The notes: a model not told the origin generated them from the sequence alone. A stretch of DNA of 64,000 nucleotides from Anaerolineae bacterium (GCA_049294015.1 JBAQCH010000024.1:62226-126225); one strand, 5' to 3'; shown: positions 1 to 15,627, counted from the stretch's first letter. Numbers and translations are program-made.

Positions 1-2070
1 ATGGGCCTGATCTTCCTGCGCCACGCCTACAGCCGCTACCTGGGGGTCAGAGATGCGATCGTGGCCGGCCTGCCCAGCCGCGGCGGCGTGGCCCGCCCGC
101 TGACCAAGGAGGACTTCTCGCAGCGCAGCGCGATCTTCCTGCGGCCCGAGGCCCAGTTCGACCACCTGGTGGCGCTGACCGACCGCGACGACCGGGCCCG
201 GGCCATCATCGCCGCGATGGAGTCCATCGAGGCCGACTACGAGAACCTGCGCGGCGTGCTGCCCAAGAGCGAGTACCAGGAGCTGGACAACCAGGTGCTG
301 GGCCAACTGCTGCGCACCCTCAATCCCGACGAGCTGAAGCGGGTTTCCGGCGACGTCTTCGGCCGCATCTACGAGTACTTCCTGACCCAGTTTGCCGACC
401 AGAAGGCCCACGACGGCGGCGAGTTCTTCACCCCTGTCTCTCTGGTCTCGCTGATCGCCAACGTGCTGGCGCCGCAGGGCGGGCGAGTGCTGGACCCGGC
501 CTGCGGCAGCGGCGGCATGTTCGTGCAGAGCGCCCGCTTCGTGGAGCGCCAGCACGGCAACCCGGTGGAGAAGCTGACCTTCTACGGCCTGGAGAAGAAC
601 AGCACCACCATCCGCCTGGCCAAGATGAACCTGGCCGTGCATGGGCTGGAGGGGGACATCCAGCAGGCCATTACCTACTACGAGGACCCGCACGAGCTGC
701 TGGGCAAGGCCGATTTCGTCATGGCCAATCCCCCCTTCAACGTGGACGAGATCGACGCCGACAAGGTCAAGCGCGACCCGCGCCTGCCCTTTGGCCTGCC
801 GGGCGCCAACAAGAAGGGCAAGGTCTCCAACGGCAACTACATCTGGATCAGCTATTTCTACAGCTACCTGAACCAGCGGGGCCGGGCCGGCTTCGTCATG
901 TCCAGCCAGGCCTCCAGTGCGGGGCGGGACGAGGCCAGGGTGCGCCAGAAGCTGGTGGAGACGGGCGACGTGGACGTGATGATCGCGGTGCGCCCTAACT
1001 TCTTCTACACCCGCACCGTGCCCTGCGAGCTCTGGTTCCTCAACCGGGCCAAGTCGGCCGTGCCCTCATCCCCGGCCCTTCTCCCAGGGGGAGAAGGGAG
1101 TGTGGGCGGCGGCGCGCCGCTGAACCACAAGGGGTGCGTGCTGATGATCGACGCGCGCGCCATCTACCGCAAGGTGACGCGCAAGATCTACGACTTCAGC
1201 CCGGAGCAGGAGCAGAACCTGCTGGCGGTGGTCTGGCTGTACCGCGGGCAAAGCGATAAATACCTGGCGTTGGTGGCCAGCTACTGCCGGCGCACCCTGG
1301 ACGAGGCCGCGGCCTGTTTCCGCATGGCGGGCGAGAACGGCCAGCCGGTCGAGCCGCTGCCAGCCTTCGACGCCAGCCTGGCCGGCCTGCGGGCGGCGAT
1401 GCAACCCTTCCTGCACAGCCGAGCCGCTGATGGCCCGCAGGCCGGGCCGCAGCAGGAGCTGGCCGCCGCCGCGGCCCTCTTCCGCGCCGACGTGGACGCG
1501 TTCCGCGCCGCGCTGGCCGAACAGCAGGCGCTCTGGCAGGGCCAACAGACCAGCAACGGCGCGCTGCAAGCCGCCGTGGACAGGCTGGCGCCATTGGCCG
1601 AGATGAGCCGCGACCTGGTGCGGCAGAGTGACCTGCTGGTCAAGCTGGCCGCCCGGCTGATCGAAACGTGCGAGAAGGAATGCGAGGCCGGCGAGAGCGA
1701 CCTGTGGCCAAACCGGGAGATCAACCGGCTGCGCAGAGCCGCCGACGAGGCCCGTCAGGCCGCGGTGGAGCAACTCAAGCAGGTGCGCACCATCTGGCGG
1801 CAGGCCCACTGGCTGGTCGAGCGCTTCCCCGACGCCGAGCTGCGCGACGTGCCGGGGCTGGTCAAGCTGGTGGACGTGCAGGAGATCGCGGCCAACGACT
1901 GGAGCCTGACCCCCGGCCGCTACGTGGGCGTGGCCCCGGCCGAGGAGGACGAGGACTTCGACTTCGAGGAGGCGTTGCGCGAGATCCACGTGGAGCTGGA
2001 GGACCTGAACGCCGAGGCGGTGGAACTGGCGGCTACTATCCAGCGCAATTTCAAGGAGCTGGGAGTATGA
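1..2070 (+). CDS. hsdM: Type I restriction-modification DNA methyltransferase subunit HsdM; 5' end probably lies upstream of the window
   Basis: Translation contains HsdM N-domain-like LIFLRHAYSRYLG, AdoMet motif LDPACGSGGMF, catalytic NPPF (MANPPFNV) and a long helical C-terminal region. Conserved HsdM_N sequence sits at residue 1, so the true start is likely outside the window. Stop overlaps the next start as ATGA at 2067-2070. Confidence 0.9.
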   Translation: MGLIFLRHAYSRYLGVRDAIVAGLPSRGGVARPLTKEDFSQRSAIFLRPEAQFDHLVALTDRDDRARAIIAAMESIEADYENLRGVLPKSEYQELDNQVLGQLLRTLNPDELKRVSGDVFGRIYEYFLTQFADQKAHDGGEFFTPVSLVSLIANVLAPQGGRVLDPACGSGGMFVQSARFVERQHGNPVEKLTFYGLEKNSTTIRLAKMNLAVHGLEGDIQQAITYYEDPHELLGKADFVMANPPFNVDEIDADKVKRDPRLPFGLPGANKKGKVSNGNYIWISYFYSYLNQRGRAGFVMSSQASSAGRDEARVRQKLVETGDVDVMIAVRPNFFYTRTVPCELWFLNRAKSAVPSSPALLPGGEGSVGGGAPLNHKGCVLMIDARAIYRKVTRKIYDFSPEQEQNLLAVVWLYRGQSDKYLALVASYCRRTLDEAAACFRMAGENGQPVEPLPAFDASLAGLRAAMQPFLHSRAADGPQAGPQQELAAAAALFRADVDAFRAALAEQQALWQGQQTSNGALQAAVDRLAPLAEMSRDLVRQSDLLVKLAARLIETCEKECEAGESDLWPNREINRLRRAADEARQAAVEQLKQVRTIWRQAHWLVERFPDAELRDVPGLVKLVDVQEIAANDWSLTPGRYVGVAPAEEDEDFDFEEALREIHVELEDLNAEAVELAATIQRNFKELGV
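1063..1100 (+). repeat. ~38-bp palindromic element CCCTCATCCCCGGCCCTTCTCCC-AG-GGGGAGAAGGGAG inserted in-frame in hsdM (RPE-like)
   Basis: Perfect inverted repeat CCTTCTCCC/GGGAGAAGG. A near-identical copy (38/39) in opposite orientation lies inside hsdR at 13819-13857. Adds about 13 aa (SSPALLPGGEGSV) in-frame. Confidence 0.7.
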
Positions 2071-3092
2071 GCACCACAGAGTTATCCGTTCCAGATGATT
2101 ATGCAGTTCTGCTGGTCAAGGTCAAAGAACGGGTGCTTACTGCACAACTGCAGGCGTTCAGAGCGGTCAATACGGAGTTGATCGGCCTTTACTGGGATAT
2201 TGGGCGCATGATTGTGGAGAAGCAGGCTGGTGAGACTTGGGGCAAATCGGTCGTCCAACAACTGGCGGGGGATTTGCAGAATGAGTTCCCTGGCATCCGC
2301 GGTTTTTCCGCCTCCAATCTCTGGCGCATGAAGTCATTTTTTGAGACCTATGCAGCCTCGGAAAGACTCGCACAGCTTGTGCGAGAAATTGGCTGGGGCC
2401 ATAACTTGGTGATTCTAGCGCGCTGCAAAGATCCACTAGAGCGAGAATTCTACCTGCGCATGACCCGCAAGTTCGGCTGGTCGAGAAACGTGCTGGTCCA
2501 TCAGATTGAGAACCAGAGCTACGAGAAGACATTGCTTGGCCAGACCAACTTCGACAAAACGCTGTCGCCCGAACTGAGGGTGCAGGCAAGGCTAGCCGTC
2601 CGCGACGAGTACATCTTTGACTTTCTGGAACTGGACGAGCAGCACTCTGAGCGGGAGTTAGAACGAGCGCTGATTGGACGTATCGAGGAGTTTCTGCGCG
2701 CTTTGGGCGGAGTATTTGCTTTTGTGGGCAGCCAGTTCCGTCTGGAAGTTGACGATGAGGAGTTCTTCATTGATCTCCTGCTATACCATCGACGCCTGCG
2801 GGCGTTGGTGGCCATCGACCTCAAGATCGGCAAGTTCCAGCCGGAGTTCGTGGGCAAGATGCAGTTCTACTTAACGGCGCTGGACCGGCAGGTGCGCATG
2901 GAAGGCGAAAACCCCTCCATTGGTATCATTCTGTGCAAGGAAAAGAAGCGTACTATCGTCGAGTACGCCCTGTACGACGCCAGCAAGCCCATCGGCGTCG
3001 CCACCTATCGGGTTGTGCGCCAGTTGCCCAAAGACCTGCGCGGCCAGCTTCCCAGCCCGGAGGAGATCGCCAGACTCTTGGAGGAAGAGTGA
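2067..3092 (+). CDS. DUF1016/YhcG-family PD-(D/E)XK nuclease-like protein, inserted between hsdM and hsdS
   Basis: 341-aa product MSTTELSVPDDYAVLLVKVKERV...; N-terminal YhcG-like helical region and C-terminal nuclease-like core (EFFIDLLLYHRRLRALVAIDLKIGKF). ATG overlaps the hsdM stop (ATGA). Visibly lower GC than hsdM. Confidence 0.7.
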   Translation: MSTTELSVPDDYAVLLVKVKERVLTAQLQAFRAVNTELIGLYWDIGRMIVEKQAGETWGKSVVQQLAGDLQNEFPGIRGFSASNLWRMKSFFETYAASERLAQLVREIGWGHNLVILARCKDPLEREFYLRMTRKFGWSRNVLVHQIENQSYEKTLLGQTNFDKTLSPELRVQARLAVRDEYIFDFLELDEQHSERELERALIGRIEEFLRALGGVFAFVGSQFRLEVDDEEFFIDLLLYHRRLRALVAIDLKIGKFQPEFVGKMQFYLTALDRQVRMEGENPSIGIILCKEKKRTIVEYALYDASKPIGVATYRVVRQLPKDLRGQLPSPEEIARLLEEE

Positions 3093-3179
3093 TGGAGCAC
3101 CAAGGTGGAAGGGCAACAGGCACCAGACGGGCGCCTGGCGATGTTCCGGTATTCGGGCTTGGGCCTTCAGACATCTGCT

Positions 3180-3241
3180 GCACCGACGCGGTGGCGCTGG
3201 CCGCGACGATCAAGCGGAACTTCGAGGAGTTGGGGATATGA
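3180..3241 (+). pseudogene. Diverged duplicate of the hsdM 3' end (..DAVALAATIKRNFEELGI*), remnant at the cassette boundary
   Basis: Encodes AATIKRNFEELGI*, compared with the hsdM end AATIQRNFKELGV*; about 75% nt identity to 2017-2070. Its TGA overlaps the hsdS ATG (ATGA at 3238-3241). Confidence 0.6.
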
Positions 3242-4359
3242 GTTGGCAGCAGGCTCGACTCGCCGATATATCATCGATGAGAACGGGAAAGCTCGACTCA
3301 AATGCGGCCATTCCCGAGGGAGCGTATCCCTTTTTCACTTGCGCCCAGGAGACCTTGAGAATAGATGAACCTGCCTTTGACACAGAGGCGGTTCTACTGG
3401 GAGGAAACAACGCGGCAGGGATATTTCCCCTGAAGTACTACAACGGCCAGTTCAACGCTTACCAACGGACCTATGTGATCGAATCACTTGCACCAGATGT
3501 TCTGAATATCCGATATCTTTACTACGCTTTGCGTCCGGCTCTCGCACATTTTCAGTCTGCTTCTATCGGGGCCGCTACTCAGTATCTTACGAAGGGTATA
3601 CTGGACAATTTTCAAGTACCATTGCCCCCAGTTACTATTCAGAATCGCATCGTTATAATCCTCTCCGCCTACGACGACCTGATCGAGAACAACCGGCGGC
3701 GCATCCGCTTACTGGAGGAGGCGGCGCGGCTGCTCTACCGCGAGTGGTTCGTCCACCTGCGCTTCCCCGGTCACGAGCACGTGGCGGTGGTGGATGGCGT
3801 GCCAGAGGGGTGGGAGAGGAAGCGCCTAATCGAGGTTGCAGACATCAGGATGGGGCAAAGCCCGAAGTCCATCTACTACAATCAAGATGGTAACGGTCTT
3901 CCTTTTCATCAGGGAGTGAGCAACTTTGGCGGGAGATTCCCATCGCACGAAGTCTTCTGTACCATTTTAAGTCGGCTTGCAGAACCGGGCGACATTCTCT
4001 TTAGTGTACGGGCACCTGTTGGCAGGATCAACATTACACGCGACAAAATCGTGATTGGGCGCGGTTTGGCTGCAATTCGCTCCAACTGCGATCAGCAGAA
4101 TTTCCTTTTCTACGCATTGAAGAGCCATTTCTTCAAGGATGACATGATGGGCACTGGCGCGATTTTTGCCGCAATCACGAAGAATGACCTTCACGGCGTC
4201 CAACTGATGCATCCTCCGCTTCGACTCATCGAGATGTTTACGGAACATGCGCAACCGATTGATAGACAGATCGAGAATCTTCAACAGACAATCGATGGTC
4301 TTGTGAAAGCCCGCGACTTGCTCTTGCCGCGGTTGATGAATGGAGAGATCAGCGTATGA
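3238..4359 (+). CDS. hsdS: Type I RM specificity subunit HsdS (two low-GC target-recognition domains around a conserved central region)
   Basis: MSWQQARLADISS... start. Central conserved HsdS repeat region IVIILSAYDDLIENNRRRIRLLEEAARLLYREWFVHLRFPGHE and C-terminal conserved LVKARDLLLPRLMNGEISV. TRD segments are visibly AT-richer than the conserved core. Confidence 0.85.
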   Translation: MSWQQARLADISSMRTGKLDSNAAIPEGAYPFFTCAQETLRIDEPAFDTEAVLLGGNNAAGIFPLKYYNGQFNAYQRTYVIESLAPDVLNIRYLYYALRPALAHFQSASIGAATQYLTKGILDNFQVPLPPVTIQNRIVIILSAYDDLIENNRRRIRLLEEAARLLYREWFVHLRFPGHEHVAVVDGVPEGWERKRLIEVADIRMGQSPKSIYYNQDGNGLPFHQGVSNFGGRFPSHEVFCTILSRLAEPGDILFSVRAPVGRINITRDKIVIGRGLAAIRSNCDQQNFLFYALKSHFFKDDMMGTGAIFAAITKNDLHGVQLMHPPLRLIEMFTEHAQPIDRQIENLQQTIDGLVKARDLLLPRLMNGEISV

Positions 4360-7300
4360 ACTCTCCAAGAAGACAGCTCAGCAATTCGTTCTCAACTGGC
4401 GGTGGCGGCGGCCATTTCGAAGCACATCTACAGGCATCCTTTGTTGTTCTGATGCTTACCGGTGGACATGCACCTTGCCTGCCCTGTTGGCCAATCGTCA
4501 AGATCAAGCTGCAAGGAAGGATCGAAGGATTTGACACTGACGACCTGATCGTATTTGTTGAGAATGGCGATACTGGAGAAACACGGAAGCTCTTGGGACA
4601 GGTCAAGCATTCAGTTAGCATCACACAAAGCGACACCGTCTTTGGAGAAGTGATCCAGGCTGCTTGGAATGATTTCAACAATCCAACGGTCTTCACCCGC
4701 GGCAAGGATGTGATTGCGCTGATTACTGGTCCATTGAGCGCAACTGATACGCATAATGTGCAGTGGATATTGGGCCAAGCACGACACACAAGCGGAGTTG
4801 ACGAGTTCTACAGAAACGTCGAGCAAGCGAATTTTAGTCCGCCCAAGAGTGAGGAAAAGCTGGCAGCAATCCAGCATCACCTAAGGACCGCCAACAATGG
4901 CACCGCCGTTTCGCGAGAGGTTCTCTATGATTTCCTGAACCACTTCCATCTGTTAAGCTACGACTTAGGGACCGAGCATGGTGTTGTCTTGTCGTTGCTT
5001 CATTCACCTATCTCGCAGCGTAACCGAAATGCCCCGCAAATGCTTTGGTCGCGGGCTGTGGACATCGTACAAACCTGGAATCAAGATGCTGGAACGATCA
5101 CTCGGGAACGGCTTCCCGAGGATCTGGTGGACGCGTTTGAGCCTACCATCATAGCCCATATTCCCGAAGAGTTGACAACCAAAGATCTCGAAACTCAGAA
5201 AACTGACTGGGATCGGCATCAATACGCCTCCGATTTGGCTCTCGCAAATCTTGTTGGTGCATGGGATGAGAAAAGCGCCGCAGATATTGAAGCCTTGACC
5301 GGAGTAATTGGGATAGAGTATGCAACGTGGGTCAAGGAAGCACGAGAGATCTTACACCTTCCCGGTAGTCCTCTGTCACTCAAAAACGGCGAGTGGAAGG
5401 TTACTGAGCGGGCTGAACTGTGGTCTTCTCTGGGTTCGCGCGTTTTCGATCAACATCTTGACTCCTTCAAGGCTGCAGCTATTGCCGTGTTGAGGGAACG
5501 CGACCCGGCTTTTGATCTTTCACCTGAAGATCGCTTTGTGGCGAGTCTCCGAGGAAAAGCTCCCCATCACAGTTCAGTGCTCAGAATGGGCCTGGCTAAT
5601 GGATTAGCGATTCTGGGCAATCATGCGGGCGCATTAGCCAACTGTTCACGCGGAAAAGCAGAGGCCACCGTAATCTTGGCGATTCGGGAGATTTTCACTG
5701 ACGCTGATTGGAAGCTCTGGGCAAGCCTGAATAACCTTTTACCTGTCATGGCCGAAGCCGCACCCAATGAATTTCTCGATGCTGTGGAGAATGCTCTGCA
5801 GCAGTCACCTTGTCCCTTTGATGAACTCTTCGCTCAGGAAGAGAGTGGCATTATGGGGAGGAACTACCTGACCGGACTACTCTGGGCATTGGAAGGACTA
5901 GCATGGGATGAGCATTACCTTGTCAGAGTTTGTGTTATACTGGGGGAACTTGCCAGTCATGATCCTGGCGGCAACTGGACAAATCGCCCAATCAACTCTC
6001 TGATAACAATCCTTCTTCCATGGTATCCGCAGACTCTTGCACCAATCGAGAAGCGCCAAGTTGCAGTCAGGACGCTCTGCAAAGAGTCGCCAGGTATCGG
6101 TTGGAACTTGATCATTCAGTTGCTGCCTAATCAGCACCGGACATCCTCAGGTTCACATAGACCTTCATGGCGCAAGATAATTCCAGAAGACTGGGAAAGT
6201 GGTGTCTCAGGCCAAGAGTACTGGCAACAGGTGTTCTTCTATGCGGAGCTTGCTGTCTCGATGGCAGACTATGATGCTGCTAGACTCGCCGAACTCATCG
6301 AACACCTTGATAAGCTGCCAAGTTCAGCACTCGATCAACTTCTAGGGGTTCTGTCTTCGGACGCAATCTCAGGTCTTCCCGAAGAACAGCGGCTTCTGCT
6401 TTGGGATCAACTTACGAAGTGCATCATCAGACACAGGCGCTATTCCGAAGCAAAATGGGCATTTGACGACGATCGCATTTCTCAGATCGAGGCAGTGGCC
6501 AACGCCGTGGCACCAGAGAATCCTTTGATTCGATATCAGCCACTTTTTTCCGCTAATGACTTTGACCTCTACGAAGGACGAGATGATTGGCGGCAACAGC
6601 AAGAAAGACTGAACGAGCGGCGTCTGCATGCTATAGAGGAAATACTCAGAACCGGCGGAGTCGATGCAGTCATCGAACTTGCGAAATCGGTCATCTCCCC
6701 AATCCAGGTCGGATACATACTCGGAAGCATCGCTGATTCGATCATTGACTCTGAACTGCTTCCTAAGTATCTGGACTCGGAAACCAGTCAGATCATATCA
6801 TTCATCCGCGGCTATGTTTCAAGCCGGTTCACAGTGAATGGATGGCCTTGGGTGGATGGTCTGGATAGATCGACATGGAGCCTTGAACAGAATGCGATAT
6901 TCCTGAGTTGCTTGTCGTTCTCAAAGGACACTTGGGATCGAGCCGATCAATGGTTGGGTGAAGAACAAGGGGAGTATTGGTCGAGAACTAGTGCAGTTCC
7001 ATATGGAACTGACGAGGATTTGCATGCTGCCGTTGAGAAGTTGATCGACTACGGCAGACCTCAGGCTGCAATTCGCTGTTTGGACAGCATGCGTCATGAC
7101 AACCGACCGCTTGATGTCACGCAATGTATTCGAGTGCTACTAACCACCGTGTCTTCATCTGAACCTGTGGACTCGATGGCCAGGTATCATATTGTCGAGC
7201 TCATCAAATACCTTCAGAACAACTCTGAAGTGCCCTCGGATGATATCGCCAACATAGAATTGATATATCTTCCCCTACTGGATCATGACCAGGGAGTAGC

Positions 7301-7904
7301 GCCCAAACTGTTGGAGCTGCGTCTGGCCACCGATCCTTTATTCTTTTGTGAAGTACTGCAACTCATCTATCGTTCACGGAATGAGGGTGCACCTCGAACT
7401 GAGCCAACCGAGTTATCAAGGGCGATTGCGTCACACGGCTGGCAATTACTTCATCACTGGCAAACGGTGCCTGGAATACAAGAGGATGGTAGTTTCGATG
7501 AAGACCGATTTTCGGCTTGGCTTCGTCGCGTACAAGAGATTTGCACTGATTCGGGCCATATAGACGTTGCGCTCAGCACCATCGGCGAGGTTTTGATATA
7601 CTCTCCTGCCGATGCAACTGGTTTATGGATAAATCGTACGGTAGCGGAGGCGCTAAACGCGCGCGATGCAGAAGATATGCGAACTGGCTTTCGCATGGGA
7701 GTACTCAACTCTAGGGGTGTTCACTTGGTTGATCCCACTGGACAACCGGAACGAGAATTGGCGGAACAGTTCCGTCAGAAAGCAGACGATGTTGAAAACG
7801 TCGGTTTTCAGCGTTTCGCGGTCACGCTTAGGGATCTTGCCGAGAGATACGATCGCGAAGCCGAGCAAATAATCGCCGACCATCGTCAGGAAGCCGCTGA
7901 ATGA
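4356..7904 (+). CDS. Large uncharacterised protein (1182 aa), lower GC, mostly predicted helical; possible N-terminal PD-(D/E)XK-like nuclease motifs. Candidate novel defence component.
   Basis: Long uninterrupted ORF; start ATG overlaps the hsdS stop (ATGA). No Walker A, DEAD or HNH motif seen. N-terminal 90 aa contain HFEAHL ... FDTDDLIVFVENGDTGETRKLLGQVK, a possible E / D / (Q)xK arrangement. Remainder is Leu/Ala-rich with Trp/Asp periodicity, suggestive of alpha-solenoid repeats. Confidence 0.7.
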   Translation: MNSPRRQLSNSFSTGGGGGHFEAHLQASFVVLMLTGGHAPCLPCWPIVKIKLQGRIEGFDTDDLIVFVENGDTGETRKLLGQVKHSVSITQSDTVFGEVIQAAWNDFNNPTVFTRGKDVIALITGPLSATDTHNVQWILGQARHTSGVDEFYRNVEQANFSPPKSEEKLAAIQHHLRTANNGTAVSREVLYDFLNHFHLLSYDLGTEHGVVLSLLHSPISQRNRNAPQMLWSRAVDIVQTWNQDAGTITRERLPEDLVDAFEPTIIAHIPEELTTKDLETQKTDWDRHQYASDLALANLVGAWDEKSAADIEALTGVIGIEYATWVKEAREILHLPGSPLSLKNGEWKVTERAELWSSLGSRVFDQHLDSFKAAAIAVLRERDPAFDLSPEDRFVASLRGKAPHHSSVLRMGLANGLAILGNHAGALANCSRGKAEATVILAIREIFTDADWKLWASLNNLLPVMAEAAPNEFLDAVENALQQSPCPFDELFAQEESGIMGRNYLTGLLWALEGLAWDEHYLVRVCVILGELASHDPGGNWTNRPINSLITILLPWYPQTLAPIEKRQVAVRTLCKESPGIGWNLIIQLLPNQHRTSSGSHRPSWRKIIPEDWESGVSGQEYWQQVFFYAELAVSMADYDAARLAELIEHLDKLPSSALDQLLGVLSSDAISGLPEEQRLLLWDQLTKCIIRHRRYSEAKWAFDDDRISQIEAVANAVAPENPLIRYQPLFSANDFDLYEGRDDWRQQQERLNERRLHAIEEILRTGGVDAVIELAKSVISPIQVGYILGSIADSIIDSELLPKYLDSETSQIISFIRGYVSSRFTVNGWPWVDGLDRSTWSLEQNAIFLSCLSFSKDTWDRADQWLGEEQGEYWSRTSAVPYGTDEDLHAAVEKLIDYGRPQAAIRCLDSMRHDNRPLDVTQCIRVLLTTVSSSEPVDSMARYHIVELIKYLQNNSEVPSDDIANIELIYLPLLDHDQGVAPKLLELRLATDPLFFCEVLQLIYRSRNEGAPRTEPTELSRAIASHGWQLLHHWQTVPGIQEDGSFDEDRFSAWLRRVQEICTDSGHIDVALSTIGEVLIYSPADATGLWINRTVAEALNARDAEDMRTGFRMGVLNSRGVHLVDPTGQPERELAEQFRQKADDVENVGFQRFAVTLRDLAERYDREAEQIIADHRQEAAE

Positions 7905-8191
7905 CCCATAACTGCGACACCGAAGGCACCCTCGTCCAACAGACCACCACCGAGCATCTGCATCAGCACCTCGGATGGCGGGCGGTCTATGCCTACAACC
8001 GCGAGGACTTCGGAGCGGGCGGTCTGCTGGGGCGGGCATCGGACCAGGAGGTGGTACTGACGCGGCCGTTGCGTGCCAAGCTTGTCGAGCCGAACCATGA
8101 CTTGGCCGACGCGGCCTGCCAAGACCCTGCATTACGACTCAACAATGCCAAATACGGGCTTGAAACGATGAATGGAGAGATCAGCGCATGA
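7901..8191 (+). pseudogene. Remnant fusion of the hsdR 5' end (about 190 nt, ~80% identical to 12340-12530) and the hsdS 3' end (ETMNGEISA*); recombination scar between cargo 1 and cargo 2
   Basis: Encodes TEGTLVQQTTTEHLHQHLGWRAVYAYNREDFGAGGLLGRASDQEVVLTRPLRA (hsdR N-terminus is TEDTLVQQTTADYLEQQLGWRSVYAYNREDFGPDSLLGRASDREVVLTRPLRA) and ends with ..MNGEISA* (hsdS ends ..MNGEISV*). The 24-nt atgaatggagagatcagcg(t/c)atga is shared by 4336-4359 and 8167-8190. Confidence 0.6.
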
Positions 8192-10293
8192 AAGCCACCG
8201 AAGCCAACTTGCTGGATTTCCTTAAGAAGTCACCTCAGTTTGTAATCCCGATCTACCAACGCACGTATAGCTGGACCGAGCGCGAATGCCGCCAGCTTTG
8301 GGATGACATCCTGCGCACCGGCAGCAACGACGCCATCGCCGCCCATTTTGTCGGTTCTATCGTCTACATCGAGAAGGGTCTATATCAGGTCACAAGCCAG
8401 TCGCCGCTGTTGGTGATCGACGGCCAGCAACGACTGACGACCGTCATGTTGATCCTGGAAGTGCTGGCGCGCCACGTGGGAAACAGCGAGCCGGTCGATG
8501 GTTTCTCGGCCAGGAAACTCCGCAGCTACTACCTGCTTAACCCGCTGGAGGACGGTGAACGGCACTTCAAGCTGCTGCTTACGCAGACTGATAAGCAAAG
8601 TCTCCTGGCGATGGTGCAGCAGAAGCCTCAGCCCGTCGAGCCGTCGCTGCGCATCGCGGACAACTTCGCCTTCTTCGAAGAGCAGATCAAGGCCCTCGGG
8701 AAGAACCTGACACCGCTGTGCAAAGGGTTGGCAAAGCTCGTGATCGTCGACATCTCACTGAGCCGGGATCAGGACAACCCGCAGCTCATATTTGAGAGTA
8801 TGAACTCGACTGGCCGTGAGTTGAGCCAGGCCGACCTGATTCGCAATTTCATTTTGATGGGGCTGGAGCCAGCCCAACAGACGCAGCTTTACGAAGATCA
8901 CTGGCGGCCGATGGAGGTTGACTTCGGCCAGGAGGCCTACGGCACCCAGTTCGACAGCTTCATGCGTCATTACCTGACTTTGAAGACTGGCGATATCCCC
9001 AATGTCCGTGCCGTTTACGAGGCGTTCAAGTCTCACGCCCGCTCTCCAGAAGTTGTGGCAGCAGGCATCGAGGCCTTGGTTGAAGACATCCATCGCTATG
9101 CTGGCTACTATTGTGCGATGGCTTTGGACAAGGAATCCAGCAAGGAGTTGGCAGAAGCCTTCCGGGATCTGCGCGAGATGAAGGTCGATGTGGCGTATCC
9201 ATTCCTTCTGGAACTGTACCACGACTTTGCCGAGGGGGTGTTGCCTGAAGCCGATTTCCTCCAGGCCGTGCGGTTGGTGGAGGCTTACGTGTTCCGCCGG
9301 GCCGTGTGCGCAATTCCTACCAACTCTCTCAACAAGACCTTCGCCACGTTCAGACGCGCCCTCAAGAAAGAGCGCTACATTGAGAGTATCCAGGCGCATT
9401 TCCTCACATTGCCGTCCTATCGCCGTTTCCCCAACGATGAGGAGTTCAAGCGCGAGTTGTCCATTCGTGATCTCTACAATTTTCCCCGTCGTAGCTATTG
9501 GCTGCGACGCCTGGAGAATTTTGACCGGAAGGAGCGAGTGTCGGTGGGTGAATACACCATCGAACACATTCTTCCCCAGAACGAGAACCTTTCCGTCGCA
9601 TGGCGTCAGTCGCTCGGTCCAGAGTGGCGACGTATACAAGAAACCTGGCTGCACACACTGGGGAATCTCACATTGACGGGCTACAATGCCGAGTACAGCG
9701 ATCGACCGTTCCAGGAAAAACGAGATATGCCGGGCGGGTTCAAAGAGAGCCCACTGCGGCTCAATCAAGGACTTGGTGCACTGGACGCGTGGAACGAAGC
9801 TGCCATTCAGGCACGGGCGAAGCATCTTGCCGAAAAGGCCGTCAAGGTATGGGCAGCGCCCGCCCTATCGGACGCCGTGCTCGAGACCTACCAGTCAAAG
9901 GCCGAAAAGTCTGTTGGCTATAGCATCTCCGACCATCCACATGTGGCTGAAGGCGGGACCATGCAGGCCCTGTTTGAGCAACTCCGCAAGGAGATCCTGG
10001 CGCTGGACCCTTGCGTTTCCGAGGAGATTCTCAAGCTCTACATCGCCTACAAAGCTGAGACCAACTTCGTGGACATCGTGCCACAGAAGAGTCGCCTCCG
10101 CCTCTCTCTCAACATGCACTTTCACGAGTTGAACGACCCCAGGGAGATGGCCAAAGATGTGACCAATCTGGGCCGCTGGGGAAATGGCGACGTGGAGGTC
10201 GGCCTGAATCAACCGGAGGACATACCCTATGTCATGGGTTTGTTGCGTCAGGCCTTTGAGAAACAGATGGGCAACGGGATAGAGACGGAATGA
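8188..10293 (+). CDS. GmrSD-family fused DUF262 (ParB/Srx-like NTPase) plus DUF1524 (His-Me/HNH-like nuclease) protein; likely type IV modification-dependent restriction enzyme or BrxU/SspE-like effector
   Basis: N-terminal DUF262 hallmarks IPIYQRTYSWTERECRQLWDD and VIDGQQRLTT. C-terminal DUF1524-like region with EYTIEHILPQN. ATG overlaps the upstream remnant stop (ATGA). Confidence 0.85.
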   Translation: MKATEANLLDFLKKSPQFVIPIYQRTYSWTERECRQLWDDILRTGSNDAIAAHFVGSIVYIEKGLYQVTSQSPLLVIDGQQRLTTVMLILEVLARHVGNSEPVDGFSARKLRSYYLLNPLEDGERHFKLLLTQTDKQSLLAMVQQKPQPVEPSLRIADNFAFFEEQIKALGKNLTPLCKGLAKLVIVDISLSRDQDNPQLIFESMNSTGRELSQADLIRNFILMGLEPAQQTQLYEDHWRPMEVDFGQEAYGTQFDSFMRHYLTLKTGDIPNVRAVYEAFKSHARSPEVVAAGIEALVEDIHRYAGYYCAMALDKESSKELAEAFRDLREMKVDVAYPFLLELYHDFAEGVLPEADFLQAVRLVEAYVFRRAVCAIPTNSLNKTFATFRRALKKERYIESIQAHFLTLPSYRRFPNDEEFKRELSIRDLYNFPRRSYWLRRLENFDRKERVSVGEYTIEHILPQNENLSVAWRQSLGPEWRRIQETWLHTLGNLTLTGYNAEYSDRPFQEKRDMPGGFKESPLRLNQGLGALDAWNEAAIQARAKHLAEKAVKVWAAPALSDAVLETYQSKAEKSVGYSISDHPHVAEGGTMQALFEQLRKEILALDPCVSEEILKLYIAYKAETNFVDIVPQKSRLRLSLNMHFHELNDPREMAKDVTNLGRWGNGDVEVGLNQPEDIPYVMGLLRQAFEKQMGNGIETE

Positions 10294-10391
10294 GTTTCAC
10301 CGAAGACACCCTCGTCCAACAGACCACCGCCGACTACCTCGAACAGCAGCTCGGCTGGCGCTCGGTCTACGCCTGTAACGATGGAGAATAA
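10290..10391 (+). pseudogene. Near-identical duplicate of the hsdR 5' end (about 85 nt, ~97% identical to 12343-12428) ending in a degenerate junction (..VYACNDGE*)
   Basis: ttcaccgaagacaccctcgtccaacagaccaccgccgactacct.gaacagcagctcggctggcgctcggtctacgcct is shared with the hsdR start. ATG overlaps the GmrSD stop (ATGA at 10290-10293). Confidence 0.6.
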
Positions 10392-12033
10392 CAGCATGAG
10401 CATTGAAGGTCAGGATTGGGACCGCAAGTCGCTACGCTTCGTCGAAGGACGTTCCGCCAACTGGGACGAAGTCGCCAAAGACTGTGTGGCCTTTGCCAAT
10501 GCGCAGGGCGGCGGGTTGTTGATCGGTATCGAGGATGATGCATGGGCGCCGCCGGCGGGTCAGCGTATTGCGGACGAACTGATCGAACGTGTGCGCCGCC
10601 GGATCGGCGAGCTGACTGTGAATGTCACCTGCGCGGTGCAGCGAGAATTGTCCGCTGAAACCGGCGGCGAATTTCTGCGGGTGACTGTTTCTCGCTCTCA
10701 TGCCCCTGCATCTACCACCGATGGCCGCTACTACTTTCGCATTGCGGACGAGTCCAAACCCCTCGTGGGCGAACAAGTTCAACGCCTGCTCAACGAGCGC
10801 AACGCTCAGCCCTGGGAGACGCTGACGACTCTCAGCGTGCCGCGCGGCCAGACGGATCCGGCCAAGCTTGCGGCGTTCACTGCGGCTATTCGGGCATCCA
10901 GCCGGGTCAAGGCGTCGGTCAAGGAGAAGGGCGACGCGGAATTGCTGGATCACTACTACCTGGCCATCGATCGCCACCTGACCAACCTGGGCATTCTCTG
11001 TGTCGGACGCAGGCAGGATCGTGTTCAACTGGGCGCAGCGCCGGTGATTCAGTTCATCAAGTACGATCAGGATGATCGCAAGGTCAGCAAACTCTCCTGG
11101 GATGATCACTCTCTGACGCCGATGGAACTGGTGGAGGCAGTGTGGCGGGAGGTTCCGGATTTCCGCGAGACCTATGAACTGCCGGACGGCCTGTTTCGAC
11201 AATACCTGCCGGCCTATGACCAGCGGGTGGTACGGGAACTACTCGTCAACGCGTTGGTGCATCGACCATACACCCAACGGGGCGACATCTATCTGAATCT
11301 TTACCCGGATCGATTGCAGGTCGTCAATCCAGGATTACTACCTTTGGGTGTCACTCCTCAGACCATCCTGCACCAATCGGTGCGGCGAAACGATGAGATG
11401 GCGCGCGTGTTTCACGATCTGGGGCTGATGGAGCGTGAGGGCAGCGGGTATGATCTGCTTTACGAGGTCTTGACTTCGCAGGGACGAAAGCTGCCAGAAG
11501 TTCGTGAGGGAAGTGATCGGGTCGAAGTGGTCGTTTACCGGCGCGTAATCAAGCCCGTGGTGATTGATTTCCTGTCCAAGGCGGACGCTGCGTACCACCT
11601 AACGCAACGTGAACGAATAGCGCTGGGAATTCTGGTTCAATACGATGCTCTGACGATGCGAGAGCTAGCCAATCTCCTGGAGTTGCAGGACACATCGTCT
11701 GTGAATTTCTGGATCGAGAGGCTTCTGGAATGGAGAATTGTTAAGCAGGTTGGAAAAACAAGCGGGACCCGCTATTTTGTCGATCCCGATCTACTGGACA
11801 GGATGAACTTTCCAAGTAAGACAACCCTTGCTCGTATTGAGACTCATCGACTCCGTGCCCTGATTTTGGAGGATTTGCGAAGACATCCAGGTTCTTCCAC
11901 AAGTAAGATGCGTGAGCGCATTGGAGATGAGATCCCTATGCAACAAATTCGCAGGCAGCTCGCCATTCTGACAAAGGAAGGCCTAGTAGTGTTTCGAGGA
12001 GATAAACGCTGGCGTCGGTACTGGCCGACATGA
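10381..12033 (+). CDS. Schlafen-like AlbA_2 (divergent AAA) domain protein with HATPase_c_4-like middle region and C-terminal winged-helix; ATP-binding putative DNA-binding regulator or defence protein
   Basis: N-terminal AlbA_2 signature E..K.LRFVE...W.EVAKDCVAFANAQGGGLLIGIEDD. Middle RELLVNALVHRPY...GDIYLNLYPDRLQVVNPG matches the HATPase_c_4/RecG-C-like motif. C-terminal region is wHTH-like. 3' third is AT-richer. Confidence 0.75.
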   Translation: MENNSMSIEGQDWDRKSLRFVEGRSANWDEVAKDCVAFANAQGGGLLIGIEDDAWAPPAGQRIADELIERVRRRIGELTVNVTCAVQRELSAETGGEFLRVTVSRSHAPASTTDGRYYFRIADESKPLVGEQVQRLLNERNAQPWETLTTLSVPRGQTDPAKLAAFTAAIRASSRVKASVKEKGDAELLDHYYLAIDRHLTNLGILCVGRRQDRVQLGAAPVIQFIKYDQDDRKVSKLSWDDHSLTPMELVEAVWREVPDFRETYELPDGLFRQYLPAYDQRVVRELLVNALVHRPYTQRGDIYLNLYPDRLQVVNPGLLPLGVTPQTILHQSVRRNDEMARVFHDLGLMEREGSGYDLLYEVLTSQGRKLPEVREGSDRVEVVVYRRVIKPVVIDFLSKADAAYHLTQRERIALGILVQYDALTMRELANLLELQDTSSVNFWIERLLEWRIVKQVGKTSGTRYFVDPDLLDRMNFPSKTTLARIETHRLRALILEDLRRHPGSSTSKMRERIGDEIPMQQIRRQLAILTKEGLVVFRGDKRWRRYWPT

Positions 12034-12333
12034 TGTTCTATCGAACAAAAAGCACTGAATTCAATGCAAAAATGCTAACACTGTTACTTAAATGAGATTG
12101 TTGACTTCCGTAGCGCGATACATTGCTGATGCATTGCTTGTTTCGATTTCTATATATTGTATTCAATAAGTTATCTGATACTATATGTAGTGATTGTCAA
12201 AGACAAGTAAAGCCTAGAATCCCGATTCTCGCTGAAAATTCTATCTAACAAATCCTGTTGAGTTTTCGTGAATTGTCAATTAGCTGTTCGTTAGGCAGAC
12301 GTTTACAAGTGCGCAACATATGAGAAATGACCG
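12034..12333 (+). promoter_or_regulatory. 300-bp strongly AT-rich intergenic island directly upstream of hsdR; candidate promoter region (for example TTGTAT-16-TACTAT at 12157-12184) and probable 3' edge of the last inserted cassette
   Basis: AT-rich sequence (for example ctatatattgtattcaataagttatctgatactatatgtagtgattgtcaaag) contrasts with the GC-rich flanks. The promoter hexamers are a weak call because the AT richness produces many matches. Confidence 0.35.
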
Positions 12334-15300
12334 ATGAAGGCTGATCGATTCACCGAAGACACCCTCGTCCAACAGACCACCGCCGACTACCTGGAACAGC
12401 AGCTCGGCTGGCGCTCGGTCTACGCCTACAACCGCGAGGACTTCGGGCCGGACAGCCTGCTGGGCCGGGCGTCGGACCGGGAGGTGGTGCTGACGCGGCC
12501 GCTGCGCGCCGCGCTGGCCGCGCTCAACCCGGACCTGCCCGCCGCGGCCTACGACGACGCCGTGCGCCAGCTCGTCAGCGTGACAGCCACCCAGTCGCTG
12601 CTGGCAACGAACCGCGAGAAGTATACCCTGATCCGCGATGGCGTGCCGGTCAGTTTCCGCAACGCCAGGGGCGAGCTGGAGCGGCGCCGGCTGCGGGTGA
12701 TCGACTTCGCCGACCCGGCCGCCAACGACTTCCTCTGCGTGCGCGAGCTGTGGGTGCGGGGCGACCTCTACCGGCGGCGGGCCGACATCGTGGGCTTCGT
12801 CAACGGCCTGCCCCTGCTCTTCATGGAGCTGAAGAACGTCAGCCGGGACATCCGCGCCGCCTACGAACGCAACTTCAAGGACTACCTGGATACCGTGCCC
12901 CACCTGTTCCACCACAACGCGGTGGTGGTGCTGGCCAACGGCGTGGACGCCAAGCTCGGCTCGCTGACCAGTCGCTTCGAGCACTTCCACGAGTGGAAGC
13001 GGCTGGACGAGGACGAGCCGGGCGTGGTGGACATGGAAACCCTGCTCAAGGGCATCTGCCAGCCGGCCAACTTCCTGGACCTGGTGGAGAACTTCATCCT
13101 CTTCGACGACTCGGCCGGCGAGCCGAGGAAGATACTGGCCCGCAACCACCAGTTCCTGGGCGTCAACCGCGCCATCCGGGCTGTGGAGGAGCGCCGCCAG
13201 CGCCAGGGCAAGCTGGGCGTCTTCTGGCACACCCAAGGCGCGGGCAAGAGCTACTCCATGGTCTTCTTCACGCGCAAGGTGCATCGCAAGCTGGGCGGCA
13301 ACTTTACCTTCCTGGTGCTCACCGACCGGGAGGACCTGGACACGCAGATCTACAAAACCTTTGCCGGCTGCGGCGTGGTGGACAACGACCGCGATCCCTG
13401 CCGGGCGGCCGGCGGCCAGCATCTGAACCAACTGCTGACCCTGCACAAGGCGTACATCTTCTCGCTGATCCAGAAGTTCAACCGCGACGTGGAGCCGGAT
13501 CAGCCCTACAGCGAGCGGGAGGACATCATTGTCATCAGCGACGAGGCCCACCGCAGCCAGTACGGCAGCCTGGCGCTGAACCTGCGCAACGCGCTGCCCA
13601 ACGCCAGCTCGATCGGCTTCACCGGCACGCCCCTCTTCAAGAATGACGAGATCACCCGCCGCGTCTTCGGCGACTACGTTTCCACCTACGACTTCCAGCG
13701 CGCGGTGGCGGACAAGGCCACTGTGCCCCTTTACTACGACGCGCGCGGCGACAAGCTGGGCGTGGTTACCGACGACCTGAACGAGCGCATCGCCGAGAAG
13801 CTGGAGGAGATGGAAAACTCCCTTCTCCCCACGGGAGAAGGGCCGGGGATGAGGGGATTCGACATCGACGTCGCCCAGCGGCTGGAGCGCGAGCTGGAGC
13901 GGGACTATCACGTCATCACCGCCGGTAAGCGGCTGGATCAGATCGCCCAGGACTTCGTCGAGCACTATTCAACCTCTTGGGAGACCGGCAAGGCGATGCT
14001 GGTCTGCATCGACAAGGTGACCTGCGTGCGCATGCACAAGCTGGTCGGGTTCTACTGGGATCAGCGCATCAAGGCGCTGGAGCGAGCAGCGCCCGCGGCG
14101 ACCGACGAGCAGGACGAGCAATATCGCCGTCGCCAGATCGAATGGATGCGCGCGACCCGCATGGCTGTGGTGATCAGCGAGGAGCAGGGCGAGGTGGCTA
14201 GATTCCAGCAGTGGGGATTGGACATCACGCCCCATCGCCGCCTCCTCAAGGAGGGCATGGACCTGCCGGAGGCCATGCGCCAGCAGCCCCAGTACCGCGC
14301 CATGCAGCGCCTGGCCCTGGACGATGCCTTCAAGGCCGAGCAGCACCCCTTCCGCATCGCCATCGTCTGCGCCATGTGGCTGACCGGCTTCGACGTGCCC
14401 AGCCTGGCGACGCTCTACCTGGACAAGCCACTCAAGGCCCACACCCTGATGCAGGCCATCGCGCGCGCCAACCGGGTCAACGAGGGCAAGAACAACGGCC
14501 TCCTCGTGGACTACTGCGGCATCCTCAAGAACCTGCGCCAGGCCCTGGCCACCTTTGCCGGCGCAGGGGATGGCGGCCGCGACGGCGACGGCGGCGAGAT
14601 CGACCCGGCCCGCCCTGAGCAGGAGCTGCTGGCCGATCTGGCTGAGGCCGTCGCGCTGGTGCAGGCGTTTTTGGCCGAACGGGGAGCGTCGCTGGATGCC
14701 ATCATCAGCCAGGCAGGCTTCGCCCGCAACGCGGCCATCCTGGCGGCCAAGGAAGCGGCCAACCAGAACGACGCGACGCGCAAGCGCTTCGAGGTCATGT
14801 GCCGGGCGGTGTTCAGCAAGTTCAAGGCTTGTCTGACCCTGGCCGGCGTCAACGCCCACCGGCGCGACAAGAGCGCCATCGACATCGTCTACCAGAGCCT
14901 GCAAGCCGACCGCGCGCAGGCCGACATCAGCGCCATCACGCAGGAATTGCACGAGATCGTCGACCAGGCCATCGCGGTGTGGCGCAGCCCGACAGCCGCT
15001 GACCGGGCGCCGTACGACATCAGCCAGATCGATTTCGAGCGCCTGCGACGGGAGTTCGAACGCAGCCCCGCCCAACGCACCACTGTGCAGAATCTCAAGA
15101 CTGCCATCGAGCGCCGCCTCCAGCGCCTGCTGGCGCAGAACCCCCTGCGAGCTGACTTGCAGCGGCGCTACGAGGAGATCGTGGCCGACTACAACCGCGA
15201 GAAGGACCGCCTGACCATCGAGCAGACCTTTGAGGAATTGCTGCGCTTCGTGCAAGCCATGGACGAGGAGGAGACGCGCGCCGCACGCGAGGGATTGACC

Positions 15301-15627
15301 GAGGAAACGCTAGCCGTGTTCGACCTGCTCAAGAAGCCTGAGCTGGCGCCGCAGGAGATCGAGCGCATTAAGAGGGTGGCGGGCGACTTGCTGGCGACGC
15401 TCAAGGCCGACAAGCTGCGCGTCGAGCAGTGGCAGGACAAGGAGGCCACGCGCGACGCCGTGCGCCAGGCCATCCTCGATTTCCTGTGGAACGACAGCAC
15501 CGGCCTGCCGGTCGGCCGCTACAGCGAGCGTGATGTGCAGGCGCGCGCCGACGTGGTCTATCAGCACGTCTTCCGGGTCTATCCCAGGCTGCCCTCGCCC
15601 TATTACGAGCTGCGCATGGCCGCGTAA
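12334..15627 (+). CDS. hsdR: Type I restriction enzyme R subunit HsdR (SF2 helicase/nuclease)
   Basis: 1097 aa; Walker A GVFWHTQGAGKSYSMVFF, DEAH box VISDEAHRSQYG, helicase motifs; long helical C-terminus. High GC like hsdM. Confidence 0.9.
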   Translation: MKADRFTEDTLVQQTTADYLEQQLGWRSVYAYNREDFGPDSLLGRASDREVVLTRPLRAALAALNPDLPAAAYDDAVRQLVSVTATQSLLATNREKYTLIRDGVPVSFRNARGELERRRLRVIDFADPAANDFLCVRELWVRGDLYRRRADIVGFVNGLPLLFMELKNVSRDIRAAYERNFKDYLDTVPHLFHHNAVVVLANGVDAKLGSLTSRFEHFHEWKRLDEDEPGVVDMETLLKGICQPANFLDLVENFILFDDSAGEPRKILARNHQFLGVNRAIRAVEERRQRQGKLGVFWHTQGAGKSYSMVFFTRKVHRKLGGNFTFLVLTDREDLDTQIYKTFAGCGVVDNDRDPCRAAGGQHLNQLLTLHKAYIFSLIQKFNRDVEPDQPYSEREDIIVISDEAHRSQYGSLALNLRNALPNASSIGFTGTPLFKNDEITRRVFGDYVSTYDFQRAVADKATVPLYYDARGDKLGVVTDDLNERIAEKLEEMENSLLPTGEGPGMRGFDIDVAQRLERELERDYHVITAGKRLDQIAQDFVEHYSTSWETGKAMLVCIDKVTCVRMHKLVGFYWDQRIKALERAAPAATDEQDEQYRRRQIEWMRATRMAVVISEEQGEVARFQQWGLDITPHRRLLKEGMDLPEAMRQQPQYRAMQRLALDDAFKAEQHPFRIAIVCAMWLTGFDVPSLATLYLDKPLKAHTLMQAIARANRVNEGKNNGLLVDYCGILKNLRQALATFAGAGDGGRDGDGGEIDPARPEQELLADLAEAVALVQAFLAERGASLDAIISQAGFARNAAILAAKEAANQNDATRKRFEVMCRAVFSKFKACLTLAGVNAHRRDKSAIDIVYQSLQADRAQADISAITQELHEIVDQAIAVWRSPTAADRAPYDISQIDFERLRREFERSPAQRTTVQNLKTAIERRLQRLLAQNPLRADLQRRYEEIVADYNREKDRLTIEQTFEELLRFVQAMDEEETRAAREGLTEETLAVFDLLKKPELAPQEIERIKRVAGDLLATLKADKLRVEQWQDKEATRDAVRQAILDFLWNDSTGLPVGRYSERDVQARADVVYQHVFRVYPRLPSPYYELRMAA
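13819..13857 (-). repeat. Second copy of the ~38-bp CCCTCATCCCCGGCCCTTCTCCC..GGGAGAAGGGAG palindromic element, inverted orientation, in-frame inside hsdR
   Basis: The reverse complement of 13819-13857 matches 1063-1100 at 38/39 nt. Encodes SLLPTGEGPGMRG in HsdR. Confidence 0.7.

Follow-up and report, generated by a model that had tools for sequence, protein, structure and literature searches.

A GmrSD-family gene and a Schlafen-like gene, probably stacked as separate defence modules, between hsdS and hsdR of a Type I restriction–modification operon from an Anaerolineae bacterium

In the prr locus, prrC sits between hsdS and hsdR. PrrC is, as Payne et al. (2024, 10.1101/2024.01.29.577857) note, almost exclusively embedded in Type I restriction–modification (R–M) systems. 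GmrSD homologues in Type I loci were noted by Machnicka (2015, PMC4619093), with RloF as the example, as cited in PMC11411939, and GmrSD-family genes inside a Type I locus were shown experimentally for TgvAB of Vibrio cholerae (PMC11411939). Payne et al. (2024) generalised this embedding of GmrSD-like genes and explicitly proposed complementary targeting of modified and unmodified DNA. Prokaryotic Schlafens (pSlfn) were shown in 2026 to be defence effectors that act as transfer RNA nucleases (tRNases; PMC13056530, PMC13462974, bioRxiv 10.64898/2026.05.29.728809). The stretch analysed here, called the window, comprises 64,000 nucleotides (nt) of a metagenome-assembled genome (MAG) of an Anaerolineae bacterium (GCA_049294015.1, JBAQCH010000024.1:62226-126225) and carries a GmrSD-like gene and a Schlafen/AlbA_2 gene between hsdS and hsdR of a Type I R–M operon. 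Both belong to known families, their arrangement is likewise of a known kind, and they add two examples, from an uncultured Anaerolineae genome, to well-populated families. We consider it likely that positions 8188-12033 hold two separate single-gene anti-phage modules stacked in the hsdS–hsdR cargo slot. An earlier description made without database searches (the sequence-only reading) had taken them for co-inserted cargo.

All genes of the region lie on the plus strand. hsdM and hsdS are upstream of the two genes and hsdR is downstream, in the same orientation, which is embedding in the sense of Payne et al. (2024) and agrees with the location inside a methylating Type I system given by the sequence-only reading.

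The GmrSD-family gene (8188-10293) encodes a protein of 701 amino acids (aa). Pfam recognises GmrSD_N (E = 3.2e-34, aa 10-222), a DUF262 NTPase domain encoded by 8215-8853, and GmrSD_C (E = 6.2e-24, aa 415-549), a DUF1524 His-Me nuclease domain encoded by 9430-9834. The two domain assignments of the sequence-only reading are thus borne out, and the peptides that it quoted are found at aa 20 (IPIYQRTYSW), aa 78 (DGQQRLTT) and aa 459 (EHILPQN). Absent from its account is an additional C-terminal domain, DUF5655 (9958-10263; Pfam E = 5.4e-14, aa 591-692). The DUF262 motifs YQR (aa 23-25), DGQQR (aa 78-82) and FESMN (aa 202-206) are invariant in 34 orthologues, as are the residues E459, H460, G492-N493 and N500 of the His-Me finger. 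The interdomain linker is all-helical between aa 214 and 445 in the AlphaFold2 (AF2) model, with a predicted local confidence (pLDDT), taken per 10-residue block, of 64-93 over aa 211-370 and of 54-63 beyond. A search of the DUF5655 profile against the sequences of the Protein Data Bank (PDB) gave nothing (best E = 1.2), and the fold of this domain is not identifiable because the AF2 model of the whole protein is poor. Lone copies of DUF5655 occur in locus L054, from a Poriferihabitaceae MAG, where two of them (13608-13964 and 14789-15070) lie 3' of the GmrSD gene; they are 63% and 43% identical to the C-terminal domain of the window protein, and the second contains a stop codon. DUF5655 can therefore exist apart from GmrSD. 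At another locus, L026 from a Verrucomicrobia MAG, the GmrSD gene is followed directly by tandem direct repeats (8055-8504), each about 173 nt long and 90-97% identical, and a partial repeat copy of 79 nt (85% identical) also lies 5' of the gene.

Among the PADLOC models, the protein matches 'Orf5' with 661 bits, HEC-06 with 216 bits (aa 7-556) and mREase_IV with 88 bits, and its C-terminal 130 aa match the candidate PDC-S18; the published system behind the name 'Orf5' was not traced. NCBIfam holds no model for this protein or for the AlbA_2 protein. HEC-06 and the GmrSD-like genes embedded in Hma or Type I R–M systems (Payne et al. 2024) share with it the single-chain DUF262–linker–DUF1524 architecture, the same orientation in a methylase-containing system and the motifs DGQQR and EH(I)xP. 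HEC-06 defends alone in RM-deleted Escherichia coli, and this defence needs the DGQQR and EH residues; the window protein differs from it in its far higher score on 'Orf5' and in the extra DUF5655. TgvAB, from VPI-2 of V. cholerae, and RloF of Campylobacter jejuni are likewise encoded between Type I hsd genes, and both were proposed to complement Type I restriction by targeting modified phage DNA (PMC11411939). However, TgvAB consists of two proteins (DUF262 and DUF262–DUF1524), whereas the window encodes a single protein with DUF5655.

The closest relatives of solved structure are DndI (9JFL) and SspE (6JIV), recovered with the GmrSD family profile at E = 3e-15 (aa 8-303) and E = 7e-7, respectively, and sharing the logic of a DUF262 NTPase combined with a nuclease. 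The match is mainly to the N-terminal half, with 14-16% identity in the Foldseek alignment, and unlike the window gene, near which no phosphorothioate modification genes were seen, DndI and SspE work with such genes. Eco94GmrSD and BrxU have the same domain order and catalytic motifs, with GmrSD_N and GmrSD_C above gathering score in the window protein, but PDB searches with the sequence or the family profile returned neither of them. Of the GmrSD/BrxU/SspE architecture named in the sequence-only reading, the domain order and the kinship with SspE stand, and BrxU is not among the closest solved relatives. To call the protein a modification-dependent Type IV enzyme is reasonable but unproven, because DndI and SspE sense a host mark and restrict unmodified DNA; in the case of DndI, the DNA restricted is that without the host phosphorothioate mark. 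The idea of layered immunity through a Type IV nuclease inside a Type I system has already been published and is not new here.

The GmrSD-like protein has more than 8000 database matches at E ≤ 1e-20, the best 120 of which are 78-100% identical to it. With one genome per species considered, copies at 70-88% identity were found in 80 loci, and among the carriers are Methanothrix, Methanosaeta, Methanomassiliicoccales, Saccharibacteria, Cyanobacteria, Akkermansia, Planctomycetota and many Proteobacteria. hsd genes are present within 10 kb in at least 46 of the 80 loci (at least 58%) and on both sides in at least 16, these counts being lower bounds obtained with the Hsd proteins of this window as the only queries. 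The adjoining genes often encode HsdM, HsdS or HsdR from several different Type I families, and numerous further Type I loci have the GmrSD-like gene as their one cargo. The cargo proteins of L070-L076 share 71% identity with the window copy, against just 42% for HsdR, which indicates that the gene moves between Type I systems. The combination of GmrSD and DUF5655 keeps 70-92% identity over many bacterial phyla and in several archaea, far above the conservation of the surrounding Type I genes, and is an unusually mobile and constrained candidate defence gene.

The second gene ends at 12033, as the sequence-only reading had it, and probably starts at the ATG at 10396, not at 10381, because its orthologues are 545 aa long and align from Met6 of the 550-aa open reading frame (ORF). 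Pfam searches with the ORF 10381-12033 give SLFN_AlbA_2 (E = 4.4e-10, 40.5 bits against a cut-off of 25.3; aa 9-128) and HATPase_c_4 (PF13749, E = 1.2e-16; aa 302-384). HVO_A0114 (aa 392-459) and HTH_20 (aa 489-536) are below gathering score, but matches to the winged helix-turn-helix (wHTH) fold agree with them. The SLFN/AlbA_2 domain is thus encoded by 10405-10764, the GHKL-type HATPase_c_4 domain by 11284-11532 and the wHTH domains by approximately 11554-11757 and 11845-11988, and the AlbA_2, HATPase_c_4-like and wHTH assignments made from the sequence alone are all upheld. The AlbA_2 segment VAFANAQGGGLLIGIEDD is found at aa 36 of the ORF. The N-terminal EGQDWDRK fits the catalytic motif Ex4(E/D)xK (E9, D14 and K16 in the 550-aa numbering); in the orthologues the E is invariant, the K is at least 90% conserved and the middle position is D or E. 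Invariant residues of the GHKL domain are E281/N285, N311-P312-G313 and G349-S350-G351 (545-aa numbering), which we infer to be the N, G1 and G2 boxes.

The AF2 model of the AlbA_2 protein is usable (pLDDT 79.8). Foldseek aligned it over its full length with DIP2311 of Corynebacterium diphtheriae (3LMM, E = 4e-25; sequence E = 1e-13), a structural-genomics entry without assigned function that is only 19% identical, and with the N-domains of SLFN13, SLFN11, SLFN14, SLFN12 and SLFN5 (Foldseek probability 1.0, E = 1e-4 to 5e-3); its C-terminal part matched the wHTH proteins RPC62, ScpB and MarR. By comparison with orthologues the protein is full-length. Since neither this nor the GmrSD-like protein departs from its orthologues in length or at the invariant residues, the two genes are considered intact. 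The domain composition is that of the HisKinase-HTH class, which makes up 19.2% of pSlfn (PMC13056530), and of Schlatpase, in which ATP binding to the GHKL domain leads to tetramerisation and tRNA cleavage (bioRxiv 10.64898/2026.05.29.728809). The window protein shares with them SLFN/AlbA_2 with the Ex4(E/D)xK motif described in PMC13056530, PF13749 GHKL, the C-terminal HTH and the location in a defence island; a link to Type I R–M S subunits has also been reported for them. In view of the tRNase work on Schlafens cited above, the remark of the sequence-only reading that Schlafen-like proteins are mostly uncharacterised is outdated, although for this architecture, one of the commonest among prokaryotic Schlafens, no phenotype has been demonstrated so far.

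A metagenome scan for orthologues of the AlbA_2 protein yielded 14 loci, all short. The orthologues (54-96% identity) are mostly encoded by the only gene between hsdS and hsdR, with a start codon overlapping the hsdS stop (L086, L088, L090-L094, L108). This regular place of the Schlatpase gene right behind hsdS suggests that it should be studied jointly with its Type I partner. In L108, a 153-aa AlbA_2 fragment and a Fic-like_C remnant (5935-6587) lie behind an intact Schlatpase gene.

Each of the two window genes is preceded by a scar made of hsd sequence, as the coupling to hsd scars claimed in the sequence-only reading implied. In front of the GmrSD-like gene, orf96 (7901-8191) is a composite hsdR/hsdS scar, identified by tblastn (E = 4e-23, 67.6% aa identity) and by nucleotide alignments. 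Its positions 7918-8125 are a copy of hsdR codons 7-80 (208 nt, 82% identical to 12351-12558), and 8167-8192 are the last 26 nt of an hsdS (96% identical to 4335-4360). This hsdS tail runs directly into the GmrSD start, exactly the arrangement seen for the intact hsdS of L083 and L003. The second scar (10290-10379) is an hsdR 5' end of approximately codons 1-33, here called hsdR'; its ATG at 10290 overlaps the GmrSD stop (ATGA), its 84 nt at 10296-10379 (hsdR codons 6-33) are 96% identical to 12349-12432 of the resident hsdR (E = 5e-11), and 16 nt separate the end of the copy from the start of AlbA_2. L001 and L002, both assembled from short reads of this organism, break at this hsdR 5' repeat.

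The same signature recurs in other loci. L083 has the order hsdS, GmrSD, hsdR', AlbA_2, spacer, hsdR, with the two proteins 92% and 94% identical to those of the window and without the gene for a 1182-aa protein that follows hsdS in the window; this suggests that the window combines a locus of the L083 type with one made up of hsdS, the 1182-aa gene and hsdR. The hsdR'/AlbA_2 junction of the window is found, identical, behind three upstream genes: GmrSD, an AAA_13 ATPase gene (L084) and a gene with an AlbA_2-like end (L102, at the same place in the chromosome of a close relative, with HsdR 99.7% identical). L020, from Geobacteraceae, has the same gene order with a different junction, L031 (Methanosaeta) has hsdS, SIR2, HerA, hsdR', GmrSD and hsdR, and in L076 and L082 hsdR 5' repeats of 50 and 33 nt flank GmrSD. 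Single-cargo loci have no scars. Other cargos in the same slot are SIR2 with HerA (L031, 784-3942) and the AAA_13 ATPase, of PrrC/RloC type and matching PDC-S06 (L084, 2-1182).

No integrase or recombinase gene was found in or beside the locus, and the right flank consists of housekeeping genes. Since the hsdR' copies end at various codons (approximately 29, 33, 36, 41, 69 and 85) and no recombinase is present, an integron-like site-specific cassette mechanism was rejected. The simplest account would be that related Type I loci with one cargo each recombined, either illegitimately or with the help of homology, every join leaving an hsdR 5' fragment and, once, also 26 nt of an hsdS 3' end. When distant loci are compared, nucleotide conservation is no higher at the hsdR 5' end than elsewhere in the gene, so this end could serve as a homology arm at most within one hsdR lineage. 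A bolder proposal, which we regard as rather unlikely though worth stating, is that the hsdR 5' fragments and the conserved hsdS 3' end are working homology arms for the RecA-type exchange, gain and loss of cargo, making the Type I operon a recombinase-free cassette array, and that the occupants of the slot are selected as back-up or guards of the Type I enzyme. If it were true, the Schlatpase tRNase, the GmrSD-like nuclease, the PrrC/RloC-type ATPase and SIR2–HerA would all back up or guard this enzyme. The finding would gain in importance only if the scars were shown to work as recombination arms, or if a functional link between the occupants and the Type I enzyme were established. Searches of the literature, a weak negative in view of their incomplete coverage, brought up no direct precedent for remnants of hsdR in Type I loci or for an exchange of cassettes there, and no account of hsdR 5' fragments as marks of the junctions between stacked cargos. 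The recurrent stacking of hsdR scars is the sole, mildly new element here, and the hsdR and hsdS fragments provide a readable record of how a multi-cargo defence operon was assembled.

By analogy with GmrSD, BrxU, SspE, DndI and HEC-06, the DUF262 domain of the first protein would bind and hydrolyse nucleoside triphosphate and sense the state of the DNA, thereby controlling the DUF1524 His-Me nuclease, which would nick or cut non-self DNA. In the Schlatpase, ATP binding to the GHKL domain may drive oligomerisation, by analogy with RzAgo and RorSlfn5, and the oligomers would assemble active Schlafen nuclease sites; tRNA would be cut and translation stopped in infected cells. The two wHTH domains are its likely nucleic-acid sensor. 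Both genes would belong to the 3' end of the hsdM–hsdS transcription unit, in which stop and start codons overlap, with hsdR following after an AT-rich spacer.

Several observations weigh against the reading of 8188-12033 as two stacked anti-phage modules. A scan of 7700-12500 found no sigma-70 promoter, and terminators not above the level of shuffled sequence, which leaves the transcription units unfixed, so that the operon boundaries can only be inferred. The route of recombination is indistinguishable from others, for example a deletion between tandem Type I loci. The AF2 model of the GmrSD-like protein, built with 34 close orthologues, is poor (pLDDT 61.7), so its sole PDB fold match, DndI, is weak evidence. 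Linkage of the GmrSD-like gene to Type I systems is not obligatory, given that 34 of the 80 loci are without an hsd gene under the query set used. Finally, two HisKinase-type pSlfn, when tested alone in E. coli, did not protect against the panel of phages employed (PMC13056530).

Whether the two genes form a pair can be judged from how often they meet. Among the 80 GmrSD loci, 2-5 contain an AlbA_2/HATPase_c_4-type gene (L020, L076 and possibly another three), and GmrSD is present in one of the 14 AlbA_2 loci, L083. An obligate pair was rejected on these counts, and the rarity of co-occurrence together with the hsdR scar between the two genes speaks for independent modules. A single co-inserted, co-operating two-gene system, the idea of the sequence-only reading, would gain from the recurrence of the order GmrSD, hsdR', AlbA_2 in L083 and in L020 (76% and 69% identity), from the AlbA_2-like gene beside GmrSD, in reverse order, in L076, and from the existence of DUF262–Slfn fusion proteins that defend (EcoSlfn7, PMC13056530). 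Against it stand the counts and the scar, the difference between the GmrSD/AlbA_2 junctions of the window and L020, the occurrence of each gene as sole cargo elsewhere and the identical hsdR'/AlbA_2 junction behind three upstream genes, and we find it extremely improbable. 'Serially stacked cassettes' should replace 'co-inserted', with the qualification that the two genes, once stacked, pass on as a block in close relatives. Another possibility is that the GmrSD-like protein is no Type IV enzyme directed against hypermodified phage DNA but senses the host self-mark, the N6-methyladenine of the Type I system, and attacks unmarked DNA as a second restriction arm of HsdM/HsdS. This would suit its kinship with DndI, which leaves self DNA bearing the phosphorothioate mark alone and restricts phage DNA that lacks it, and with SspE rather than BrxU, as well as the ATGA overlaps that couple the gene to hsdS upstream and hsdR downstream in single-cargo loci and the frequency of hsd genes nearby. 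But the likeness to DndI is modest and does not extend beyond the N-terminal half, orthologues at 70-80% identity adjoin unrelated Type I families with differing specificities and positions, many have no detected hsd neighbour, and the family relative HEC-06 needs no R–M system to defend; such a role thus appears quite unlikely.

For the Schlatpase, and possibly the GmrSD-like protein too, a guard function comparable to that of PrrC may be considered, in which the protein is masked by the Type I complex and freed as a tRNase by a phage anti-restriction protein. The Schlatpase gene fills the same hsdS–X–hsdR slot as prrC in the prr locus, an AAA_13 ATPase of the PrrC/RloC type occupies it in L084, and the overlap of the Schlatpase start with the hsdS stop in single-cargo loci fits as well. 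A fusion of Schlatpase to a Type I S subunit has been reported (bioRxiv 10.64898/2026.05.29.728809), and the lack of defence by HisKinase-type pSlfn expressed alone would be expected of a guard. The likeness to PrrC is nevertheless one of position and logic only, that of a tRNA-cutting effector between hsdS and hsdR: the folds are unrelated (PrrC combines an ABC-type ATPase with an anticodon nuclease), and masking by the Type I enzyme is a demonstrated feature of PrrC (prr/EcoprrI) but hypothetical here. Moreover, GHKL is present in 58.6% of 103,533 prokaryotic SLFN-domain proteins and the SLFN–pAgo subgroup has no conserved genetic partner (bioRxiv 10.64898/2026.05.29.728809), and in the window two other cargos separate the Schlatpase gene from hsdS, so that direct coupling to HsdS translation is lost. 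We therefore hold a guard function to be unlikely. That the AlbA_2–GHKL–wHTH protein is mainly a DNA-binding regulator of the operon, and not a nuclease effector, is suggested by its two C-terminal wHTH domains and by database names such as 'putative DNA binding domain-containing protein'; it is very improbable, since the Ex4(E/D)xK and GHKL motifs, needless for a regulator, are conserved across orthologues and the relatives of the protein are demonstrated tRNases. Two separate anti-phage modules remain the reading that we prefer.

The AlbA_2 gene is followed by an AT-rich spacer of 300 nt (12034-12333) 5' of hsdR, with a GC content of 0.357 against about 64% for the genome. It is near-identical in L083 and unrelated in L086 and L020, and is possibly a promoter or regulatory region of hsdR that travels with the AlbA_2 cassette. 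hsdR itself (12334-15627, 1097 aa) was recognised by Pfam HSDR_N, SWI2_SNF2, ResIII and T1RH-like_C and by TIGR00348 (461 bits). To its right lie the housekeeping genes, among them those for NUDIX, acyl-CoA ligase and Fe–S assembly proteins. The GC content at third codon positions is host-like in hsdM (0.93) and hsdR (0.91), against 0.50-0.72 in the genes between them; the low values of the cargo and the low GC content of the spacer fit an import of the middle block. ATGA stop/start overlaps are found at gene junctions of the region. An Rfam search of the whole window gave no match.

The left part of the operon begins with hsdM, the Type I methyltransferase gene (1-2070, its 5' end lying to the left of the window; Pfam N6_Mtase, E = 3e-71, and HsdM_N; PADLOC MTase_I, 764 bits), for which L001 contains a 725-aa gene call. 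The gap between hsdM and hsdS is occupied by a cargo gene for a DUF1016/YhcG nuclease of the PD-(D/E)xK type, candidate PDC-S02 (2067-3092, 341-aa gene call; YhcG_C, E = 4e-61; DUF1016_N, E = 1e-46; PADLOC, 498 bits). It is followed by a short ORF of 49 codons (3092-3241) that ends in a copy of the HsdM C-terminus, namely the last 18 codons of hsdM (3185-3238) just 5' of hsdS (tblastn with HsdM aa 672-689, 72% identity, E = 0.005, weak alone). This arrangement (2067-3241) looks like the same stacking signature in a second slot of the operon. The specificity gene hsdS (3238-4359, 373 aa; Pfam Methylase_S, PADLOC Specificity_I) is also a gene call in L001.

The start of the 1182-aa cargo ORF (4356-7904) overlaps the hsdS stop (ATGA). 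It has no match in Pfam, PADLOC or NCBIfam and has 1778 homologues of about 1180 aa, with 60-67% identity, in Gammaproteobacteria, Planctomycetes, Syntrophus and Desulfosporosinus. The homologues adjoin Wadjet-like JetABCD, MNT/HEPN, McrBC, RloB/AAA_15 or BrnTA genes or sit in integrative elements, and the protein is likely to be an undescribed single-gene defence protein.

A GC-rich palindromic element of 39 nt, CCCTCATCCCCGGCCCTTCTCCCAGGGGGAGAAGGGAGT, lies in frame in both hsdM (1063-1101) and hsdR (13817-13855), in opposite orientations and 95% complementary. No further copy exists in the 64 kb, and 0 are expected by chance. The element is absent from the orthologous hsd genes of other lineages, and the alignments with the L108 orthologues are shorter by approximately 27 residues in HsdM and 14 in HsdR. 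It is similar to palindromic elements that lie in frame elsewhere, for example those of Rickettsia (RPEs).

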